Below, one piece after another: positions 23,537 through 24,081 of a DNA stretch of 36,900 nucleotides. Position 1 is the stretch's first letter. Every line of letters begins with the position of its first letter. The translations under genes were made by a program, and so were the position numbers. The DNA comes from Escherichia phage SaltyDalty. Under the pieces are notes generated by a model. It searched no databases. It was given only the letters and a program-made list of their open reading frames with translations, and was not told the DNA's origin. Location: the sequence record PP925825.1; one strand, given 5' to 3'.

Positions 23537-23959
23537 GTGAATAATGATATCTGGAATCCGGCTGGCTCTATTGAGCTGGCCCACCGGCAGGCTCTGACAT
23601 GTGTATGTGATGCCTACTTGTTTCATTTGGTCAGCCTGCACCGTCGCCCTGTATATCGCCACCAGTACGGTGATATTTCGCTTAATCAGACAGCATTACA
23701 GGGATTCATCGACTCGTACCTCGCTGATAAGGGATGGAGTATGGAGCGTCGCCGTGCACATTACATCAACATTCTCGATCTCATCCGCTATATGGGTCGA
23801 AAAAACTCGGATTTCATCGACTGGGGCACGGTGCCAACGCTAACCCCTCGTGGAATTCGCTGGTTGAACGCCTGTTTCTCAAGACTGGGGGATATGGTGA
23901 ACAGTTATGGCGGATTGGAAGGTTACATCACTGCTACTAAGAAAGGTGCGGGCCAATGA
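23537..23959 (+). CDS. Hypothetical protein
   Basis: ORF 23411..23959 overlaps lar; probable GTG start at 23537 just after the lar stop. Confidence 0.45.
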   Translation: MNNDIWNPAGSIELAHRQALTCVCDAYLFHLVSLHRRPVYRHQYGDISLNQTALQGFIDSYLADKGWSMERRRAHYINILDLIRYMGRKNSDFIDWGTVPTLTPRGIRWLNACFSRLGDMVNSYGGLEGYITATKKGAGQ

Positions 23960-24081
23960 AAAAAGTATCTGAGCTGGTGATGTTTACTCTTTTCTTCTCC
24001 AGCCTTACGGGGATTGGGTTAACAGCGGGGTTCTACTGTTTTATCGGAGTATGCAAGCTGCTTTGGAGGATTGTTGGATGA
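23956..24081 (+). CDS. Putative 41-aa hydrophobic membrane peptide (not in the supplied ORF track)
   Basis: ATG 23956 overlaps upstream stop (ATGA), GAAAGGTG RBS, translation MKKVSELVMFTLFFSSLTGIGLTAGFYCFIGVCKLLWRIVG, stop overlaps the next gene's ATG. Confidence 0.35.
   Translation: MKKVSELVMFTLFFSSLTGIGLTAGFYCFIGVCKLLWRIVG

Follow-up and report, generated by a model that had tools for sequence, protein, structure and literature searches.

A conserved gene for a predicted 41-residue membrane peptide, misnamed as a sodium:solute symporter, in the putative early-left operon of Enterobacterales prophages

The proteins encoded in the exo-xis region of phage lambda are, according to present knowledge, soluble. 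The lambda genes orf60a, orf61, orf63, orf73, ea22 and ea8.5 are small, non-essential and mosaic, lie on the pL transcript 5' of xis/int and are expressed early on, once infection or induction has begun (PMC3824215, PMC6213356, PMC8614690), and deletion or overexpression of exo-xis genes shifts the balance between lysis and lysogeny (PMC3824215, PMC6213356, PMC8614690). Here, we describe a gene in a similar setting in Escherichia phage SaltyDalty (PP925825.1), in a stretch of 36,900 nt that is referred to as the window. The gene, named pep41 here, resembles the lambdoid exo-xis accessory genes in its position between the recombination/regulatory genes and xis-int. However, it shares no PHROG or Pfam family with any of the six lambda genes listed above and, unlike the soluble proteins of the lambda region, its product appears to be a bare membrane helix.

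AcrZ, MgtS, MgtR, MgrB, KdpF, CydX and SidA are all shorter than 50 aa, consist of a single helix with no soluble domain, and tune larger membrane proteins by means of a function that is borne by the helix. Bacterial small membrane proteins of this kind have been reviewed (PMC12648545). The pep41 product is like the class that includes AcrZ, MgtS, MgtR and SidA in its size (<50 aa), its single helix and its lack of a soluble domain, and both hydropathy and the AF2 model give it the one bilayer-spanning hydrophobic helix expected of a small single-pass membrane protein. It is unlike the AcrZ class in being phage-encoded and embedded in an operon, and in having no homology to these proteins in a profile search. 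By position, then, pep41 belongs with the lambdoid exo-xis/early-left accessory genes and by structure with the small membrane proteins; judged on its sequence, it is an uncharacterised small phage accessory membrane protein for which membership of no known family can be claimed.

The window corresponds to a temperate phage of the lambdoid type in its circular or excised form (Table 1). The order on the plus strand is CI, the candidate pL, several unknowns, Ant (ORF6N), Lar, the 140-aa gene, pep41, the 118-aa gene, a 110-aa gene, xis and int. Scans for promoters and terminators, which register consensus matches only, found no promoter-like or terminator-like site on the plus strand from approximately 22100 to 25400; around 23900-24100, the minus strand was likewise free of promoter-like sites. 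Because this block is unbroken and no internal promoter or terminator was detected over that span, pep41 would be internal to the early-left transcript and repressed in the lysogen. Membership of an early-left (pL-type) operon is what the layout suggests, and the location in an early operon that was claimed in the original prediction for this DNA holds for the block running from after CI to xis/int. The same early-left setting upstream of xis/int was also found in prophages of Citrobacter, Salmonella, Pantoea and Enterobacter. Equivalents of the 72-aa phrog_1525 gene of the early operon (those in L173-L178) match the Pfam family ParE_like (PF24732).

Table 1. Coordinates of pep41, its signals and neighbours, and the main gene blocks of the window
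Feature	Position (nt)	Strand	Remarks
Head and terminase genes	60-8213	-	
HNH endonuclease	8563-8916	-	adjoining terminase region
Glycosyltransferase, 485 aa, phrog_1579	10024-11481	-	moron class
Rz/Rz1, endolysin (phrog_315), holin (phrog_198)	12680-14304	-	behind Q
Q-like antiterminator	14952-15767	-	
Primase/helicase and O-like replication genes	15771-18733	-	
Cro-like gene	18878-19096	-	
CI-like repressor	19190-19918	+	head of rightward block
Terminator-like hairpin	19970-19991		after CI-like repressor
Promoter-like site	20270-20298		candidate early-left promoter, consensus match
Early-operon gene, 72 aa, phrog_1525	21690-21908	+	
Upstream neighbour, 140 aa, phrog_24826	23537-23959	+	GTG start
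Shine-Dalgarno-like site of pep41, GAAAGGTG	23941-23948	+	within 3' end of upstream gene
ATGA overlap, pep41 start/140-aa gene stop	23956-23959	+	
pep41, 41-aa membrane peptide CDS (predicted)	23956-24081	+	stop included; ORF, conserved intact frame, frame-specific purifying selection
Predicted transmembrane helix, codons 7-32	23974-24051	+	hydropathy, AF2, conservation
GGAGGA Shine-Dalgarno site of downstream gene	24065-24070	+	inside pep41 codons 37-39
ATGA overlap, pep41 stop/118-aa gene start	24078-24081	+	ATGA junction in 66/66 loci
Downstream neighbour, 118 aa, phrog_6158	24078-24434	+	
Excisionase, DUF1233	24816-25070	+	end of operon
Integrase	25115-26407	+	ATG at 25115; end of operon
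Tail genes	27954-36900	-	

Positions 18248-26456 of the window are 99.9 % identical to an integrated prophage (OW849320.1, a chromosome of 5.16 Mb) that adjoins pncB/asnS/ompF. The identity ends at window position 26456 (12501 in L177), 49 nt past the integrase stop, and to judge from this boundary position 26456 marks the attachment-site core; relatives with different integrases use different sites. As the identical peptide has been deposited from Enterobacter hormaechei and E. cloacae, the host belongs to the Enterobacter cloacae complex.

The pep41 product is MKKVSELVMFTLFFSSLTGIGLTAGFYCFIGVCKLLWRIVG. The ATG of pep41 (23956-23958) shares bases with the TGA (23957-23959) of the upstream gene, the true start of which is a GTG at 23537 directly 3' of GGAGGG, and the pep41 TGA (24079-24081) shares bases with the ATG (24078-24080) of the downstream gene. 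Within the Shine-Dalgarno (SD)-like site, the five nucleotides AGGTG match the anti-SD complement and lie 7 nt 5' of the ATG. Hence, the ORF, the ATGA overlaps at both ends and the ribosome-binding site that had been read from the letters were all found as predicted, and pep41 appears to be equipped both with an SD-like site for its own translation and with ATGA coupling to its two neighbours. The SD site of the downstream gene is embedded in the last codons of pep41, and a motif containing AGG or GAG before the ATGA is also present at this position in other pep41 family members. This embedded site may constrain the otherwise variable C-terminal tail of the peptide, perhaps as the main constraint on it. 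However, the surrounding 4.5-kb stretch is overlapped by 62 ORFs of at least 25 aa. A 41-codon ORF is therefore unremarkable on its own, and the case for a gene rests on comparison with relatives.

In order to make this comparison, 5.8 billion protein clusters were searched, yielding 22 clusters of 41-45-aa proteins with 66-98 % identity, and 65 homologue loci were drawn from isolate genomes, metagenomes and IMG/VR; about ten more were added later. The frame was intact in all of the first 66 loci: 64 have 41 codons, L013 has 45 and L066 has 42, and in every one the stop codon shares an ATGA with the gene that follows. In 26 of the 27 distinct upstream contexts, pep41 is preceded at the proper spacing by an SD-like match of 4 nt or more, which falls within unrelated genes. 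The original prediction had named interruption of the frame in close relatives as a result that would count against it, and on this point pep41 comes through for the most part: the frame is intact in about 75 related loci, and one copy (P0032, in L069) is frameshifted by a single-base deletion. On the same contig (JGI 3300045721, 1471-5437) the anti-repressor is split into 132 + 146 aa and the integrase into 42 + 373 aa, pointing to a decaying prophage or an indel-prone assembly.

Selection was estimated as the pooled Nei-Gojobori pN/pS of 30 distinct DNA alleles. The ratio was 0.35 in the pep41 frame versus 1.10 and 1.54 in the other two frames, and variability was greatest at the third codon position. 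The constraint is concentrated in codons 1-31 (pN/pS 0.23), whereas codons 32-41 are nearly neutral (0.84). Pairwise values against the window allele all fall in the range 0.26-0.45 (binomial p<0.01), including those for alleles found in the same context without the 74-aa partner described below (L079, L087 and L062), and synonymous change among the alleles is saturated (pS ~0.6). An RNA element in place of a gene was also considered and was rejected, since no Rfam RNA was found in 22500-25500 at E values up to 1 and the local RNA fold at pep41 was no better than that of shuffled sequences (z = -0.22). The intact frame in about 75 loci, the frame-specific pN/pS and the SD match in 26/27 contexts lift this ORF above chance, and this comparison of alleles shows 23956-24081 to be a genuine gene for a protein, with selection on the amino acid sequence of residues 1-31.

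The presence of pep41 is nevertheless variable. In 50,697 phage records there is a single close relative, Escherichia phage Fostie (82 % identity), in which a clean gap of ~120 nt takes the place of the gene. Among 22 viral contigs in which the 118-aa gene is 88-99 % identical to that of the window, pep41 is present in 14, as the window's allele at ten loci and as a divergent allele (MKKICDLVLITFVFFS[IV]AG[IM]GVTAGFFCFITVCKLLWRIVG) at four, and absent from eight. At six of the latter, the 140-aa and 118-aa genes are joined directly by ATGA, while at two the last ~18 nt of pep41 (GGAGGAATTGTTGGATGA) have been kept, likewise in Fostie. These ~18 nt in Fostie, L086 and L089 are a deletion scar and, in a different frame, encode the C-terminal end of the upstream protein. 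Clean absence from several close relatives indicates that pep41 is an optional accessory gene and not a core early function. Two Enterobacter prophages, L174 and L176, carry the identical pep41 downstream of a gene (9786-10004) called at 72 aa, not 140, which suggests that the upstream gene is disrupted or alternatively started there with pep41 intact.

These relatives also bear on whether pep41 might be an inert peptide, i.e. a chance frame or a spacer that serves the translational coupling of its neighbours. The overlaps at both ends, the SD of the next gene held in the 3' end and the dispensability of pep41 in close relatives would all suit such a spacer, but the purifying selection is at the amino acid level and specific to the pep41 frame, and the length and several residues are invariant in ~50 distinct proteins in spite of the saturated synonymous change. 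Moreover, the relatives without pep41 couple the flanking genes directly by ATGA and hence no spacer is needed. We consider an inert peptide very improbable.

The neighbours of pep41 change from lineage to lineage. The upstream position is filled by at least six unrelated families across the loci, and in most lineages the gene downstream is an ATGA-coupled gene for a 73-74-aa phrog_1001 protein, with one gene intervening in Pantoea and in L056. An obligate pair formed by these two genes was rejected, as the 74-aa gene is found without pep41 in 79 of the best 80 viral loci, and also in Fels-1 and E. coli G3/10, and pep41 has been kept where the 74-aa gene is missing, namely in the window and in two further lineages (the L079 type and the L062 type). 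As the two occur separately, pep41 is not the obligate partner of any neighbour. The related proposal that pep41 is a membrane anchor or adaptor for the 73-74-aa protein, making a two-gene module of which the window has an orphan copy, would account for the ATGA-coupled 73-74-aa gene being next to it in most distinct pep41 lineages, but is hard to reconcile both with the purifying selection on pep41 in the three contexts that lack the 74-aa gene and with the preponderance of 74-aa genes that have no pep41 beside them, and we regard it as distinctly improbable. On the arrangements compared, pep41 is a module in its own right, exchanged by recombination at the boundaries of genes, as is typical of the mosaic early-left region.

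The 73-74-aa phrog_1001 protein, for which there is no Pfam family, is very common in prophages of the Enterobacterales, in their early-left operons (188 confirmed viral loci), and its gene was detected at the DNA level in 57 of 5426 E. coli genomes. Examples are L011 3123-3347 and STM0896.1n of Fels-1 (L067 2501-2725), and the gene is ATGA-coupled to varied preceding genes. In the Pantoea sp. BAV 3049 prophage (L009), an unrelated 45-aa ORF (4123-4260; MKITFDKCADWGLKAFACVAAVGVGSCVLLIIAIIAKTLWGDLTS) that also encodes a single helix lies between pep41 and the 74-aa gene, and it seems that membrane peptides of such small size turn up here repeatedly. Fostie (L001, PP925832; 5569-6336) is annotated with one 226-aa CDS in place of the separate 118-aa and 110-aa genes of the window (24078-24759); it is joined via an out-of-frame middle, indicating a frameshift or a sequencing error.

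Though pep41 was originally thought to be unannotated, the identical protein is in the public records, deposited from Enterobacter (AVZ14844.1, BBS32803.1 and UniRef A0A6S5JNY5_ENTCL) and called on many contigs, under a name that is wrong. The name given in GenBank, RefSeq and UniRef to this protein and its 41-aa relatives is "sodium:solute symporter", in records from Enterobacter, Salmonella, Citrobacter, Klebsiella michiganensis, Pantoea and Symbiopectobacterium, with one Salmonella allele on 685 contigs. That name is all that speaks for a symporter or a fragment of one. Members of the sodium:solute symporter family are multi-helix proteins of several hundred residues, whereas pep41 is 41 aa long with one helix, all members of its family are 41-45 aa, and their setting is always a prophage early operon. 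No match to Pfam models, which include SSF (PF00474), was found at E values up to 1 and none to an NCBIfam symporter model at E values up to 10. Likewise, a profile search of 1.84 billion protein representatives gave 11 matches at E<0.001, ten of which are 41-44-aa proteins of the pep41 family and one an unrelated repetitive protein. The public annotation is almost certainly wrong and, with both the HMM and the multi-helix comparisons negative, should be regarded as a propagated error. To judge from the same searches, the pep41 family is narrow and found in prophages of the Enterobacterales.

No credible family for pep41 was identified in Pfam, PHROGs, NCBIfam or PADLOC. The only matches were weak ones, to phrog_5525 (E 0.0013, with another allele) and, far below the cut-off, to ExtJ and NuoN, and a profile search of the PDB gave no match. 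The original prediction had offered host killing, division inhibition or anti-defence as possible roles; in the same four collections, the PDB and the 1.84-billion-protein profile search, no homology to a toxin, division inhibitor, holin or defence/anti-defence protein was detected. A tblastn search of the 50,697 phage records at E values up to 10 also gave no match, probably due to the low-complexity filter and the short query. The region had no megablast match in 5,426 complete E. coli genomes, and when a cassette from another lineage was used in a distant blastn search against E. coli, the 74-aa gene alone was matched and never pep41. Full-text literature searches using the sequence motif, small prophage membrane proteins and the exo-xis region returned nothing on pep41. 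Membrane peptides of this small size in phages are regularly overlooked or wrongly named, and pep41 is a clean example. As the family occurs in Enterobacterales of clinical relevance, in prophages of the Enterobacter cloacae complex, Salmonella, Citrobacter, K. michiganensis and Pantoea, correction of the symporter name would be a small but real gain in annotation.

The original prediction of one long hydrophobic segment agrees with what was found. There is a single hydrophobic stretch at about residues 7-33, the GRAVY is 1.20, and the best 19-residue Kyte-Doolittle mean is 1.64 (residues 7-25). AF2, run with the family alignment, returned a single uninterrupted helix covering residues 2-40 with a mean pLDDT of 87. 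K2 and K3 are nearly invariant and the short, variable C-terminal tail includes 1-2 K/R; as both flanks are basic, the topology is not fixed by the positive-inside rule. A lipoprotein or a signal peptide was rejected because no lipobox is found before C28 or C33, neither cysteine is invariant, and <10 residues would remain after cleavage. The product is thus modelled as essentially one hydrophobic alpha-helix with a basic N-terminus and no soluble domain.

Among 50 distinct 41-aa family members, F14, G19, G21 and G25 are invariant, and M1, K2, K3, L7, T11, L12, S15, L17, T23 and A24 are at least 90 % conserved. Positions 11, 15, 16, 18, 19, 21, 23, 24, 25, 28 and 31 are occupied by small residues in at least 88 % of members (T11, S15, S16, small at 18, G19, G21, T23, A24, G25, small at 28, and G31), that is 11 of the 26 positions of the helix. 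These do not gather on one side. When a single small-residue face, as in a GxxxG-type interface, was sought using the helical moment of smallness at 100 degrees, the permutation p value was 0.85. As the small residues lie off any single face, a simple interface of the GxxxG type is not specifically supported, and the middle of the helix (residues 15-25) is slim on every side.

As pep41 has no soluble domain, its action must be through the transmembrane helix, and the conserved small residues, in which this helix is unusually rich, together with the invariant F14 suggest close packing against other helices. We therefore favour, with a little better than even confidence, an early-expressed membrane peptide that acts by helix packing with a membrane partner as the best explanation for this gene. 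In this scheme, pep41 would be made once infection or prophage induction activates the early operon, would insert into the inner membrane as a single-pass protein, and would act by packing its helix against other membrane helices. Those helices could belong to an inner-membrane protein of the host, which would be modulated or inhibited, or to further copies of pep41. Host membrane physiology would as a result be adjusted in a non-essential way that is of use to the phage in some hosts, with the gene lost harmlessly elsewhere. Modulation of a host protein in the manner of AcrZ, MgtS, MgtR and SidA, variants with self-association included, seems to us the most likely mode, though our confidence in it is evenly balanced. 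If pep41 does bind a host membrane protein, it would be a phage-encoded addition to the helix-only regulators and a simple tool against its target. Against specific packing, a homo-oligomeric pore or a flexible hinge would be just as compatible with a helix that is glycine-rich all round.

Helices that form channels are enriched in glycine-zipper patterns, and pep41, which is small and hydrophobic, has the ladders S15xxxG19xxxT23 and G21xxxG25 as well as small residues all round the helix that would fit a homo-oligomeric bundle. It might then be a pore-forming or depolarising toxin, the glycine-rich helix of which would oligomerise to a small channel in the manner of viroporins, type I toxins or pinholins and arrest or kill the host. 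Type I toxins (Hok, Ldr, TisB, Ibs and ShoB) are small hydrophobic one-helix peptides that are often carried on mobile elements (PMC8309996, PMC2887945). The pep41 peptide is likewise small, hydrophobic and of one helix, and it is like holins and pinholins in being a small phage membrane protein with a glycine-rich helix. However, unlike type I toxin loci, pep41 is ATGA-coupled in a long operon and no promoter of its own was detected; the consensus scan revealed no antisense promoter, Rfam no antitoxin RNA, and Pfam and PHROGs no similarity to the Hok, Ldr, TisB, Ibs or holin families. Unlike holins and pinholins, it is in the early operon by xis/int, ~10 kb from the lysis cassette and on the opposite strand, and early depolarisation would be expected to trigger the holin too soon and so lower the phage yield. 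Overall, we judge a pore to be unlikely.

Returning to a helix that packs against a membrane partner, a stricter version can be put forward only tentatively and is itself rather doubtful. Here, pep41 would be an intramembrane inhibitor, a bare helix that docks into one specific host inner-membrane machine and switches that machine off during induction or infection. Examples of such a machine would be the divisome, FtsH/HflKC, a sugar permease through which phage DNA enters and a defence effector bound to the membrane. If this were true, a new family of phage "helix-only" host-takeover factors would have in pep41 its first characterised representative.

Morons, among them the gene for HK97 gp15, a membrane protein that confers superinfection exclusion, are expressed in the prophage state from a promoter of their own and likewise have their own terminator. 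Like them, pep41 is an optional gene for a small membrane protein, situated between conserved genes and present or absent among close relatives. Unlike them, it has no promoter or terminator that was detected in the consensus scan, overlaps both neighbours by 4 nt and would depend on the repressed early transcript. As it stands, pep41 looks to be an ordinary dispensable accessory gene of the mosaic early-left region. Elsewhere in the window, the 485-aa glycosyltransferase, which is of the moron class, lies between the lysis and packaging genes and probably modifies surface polysaccharide.
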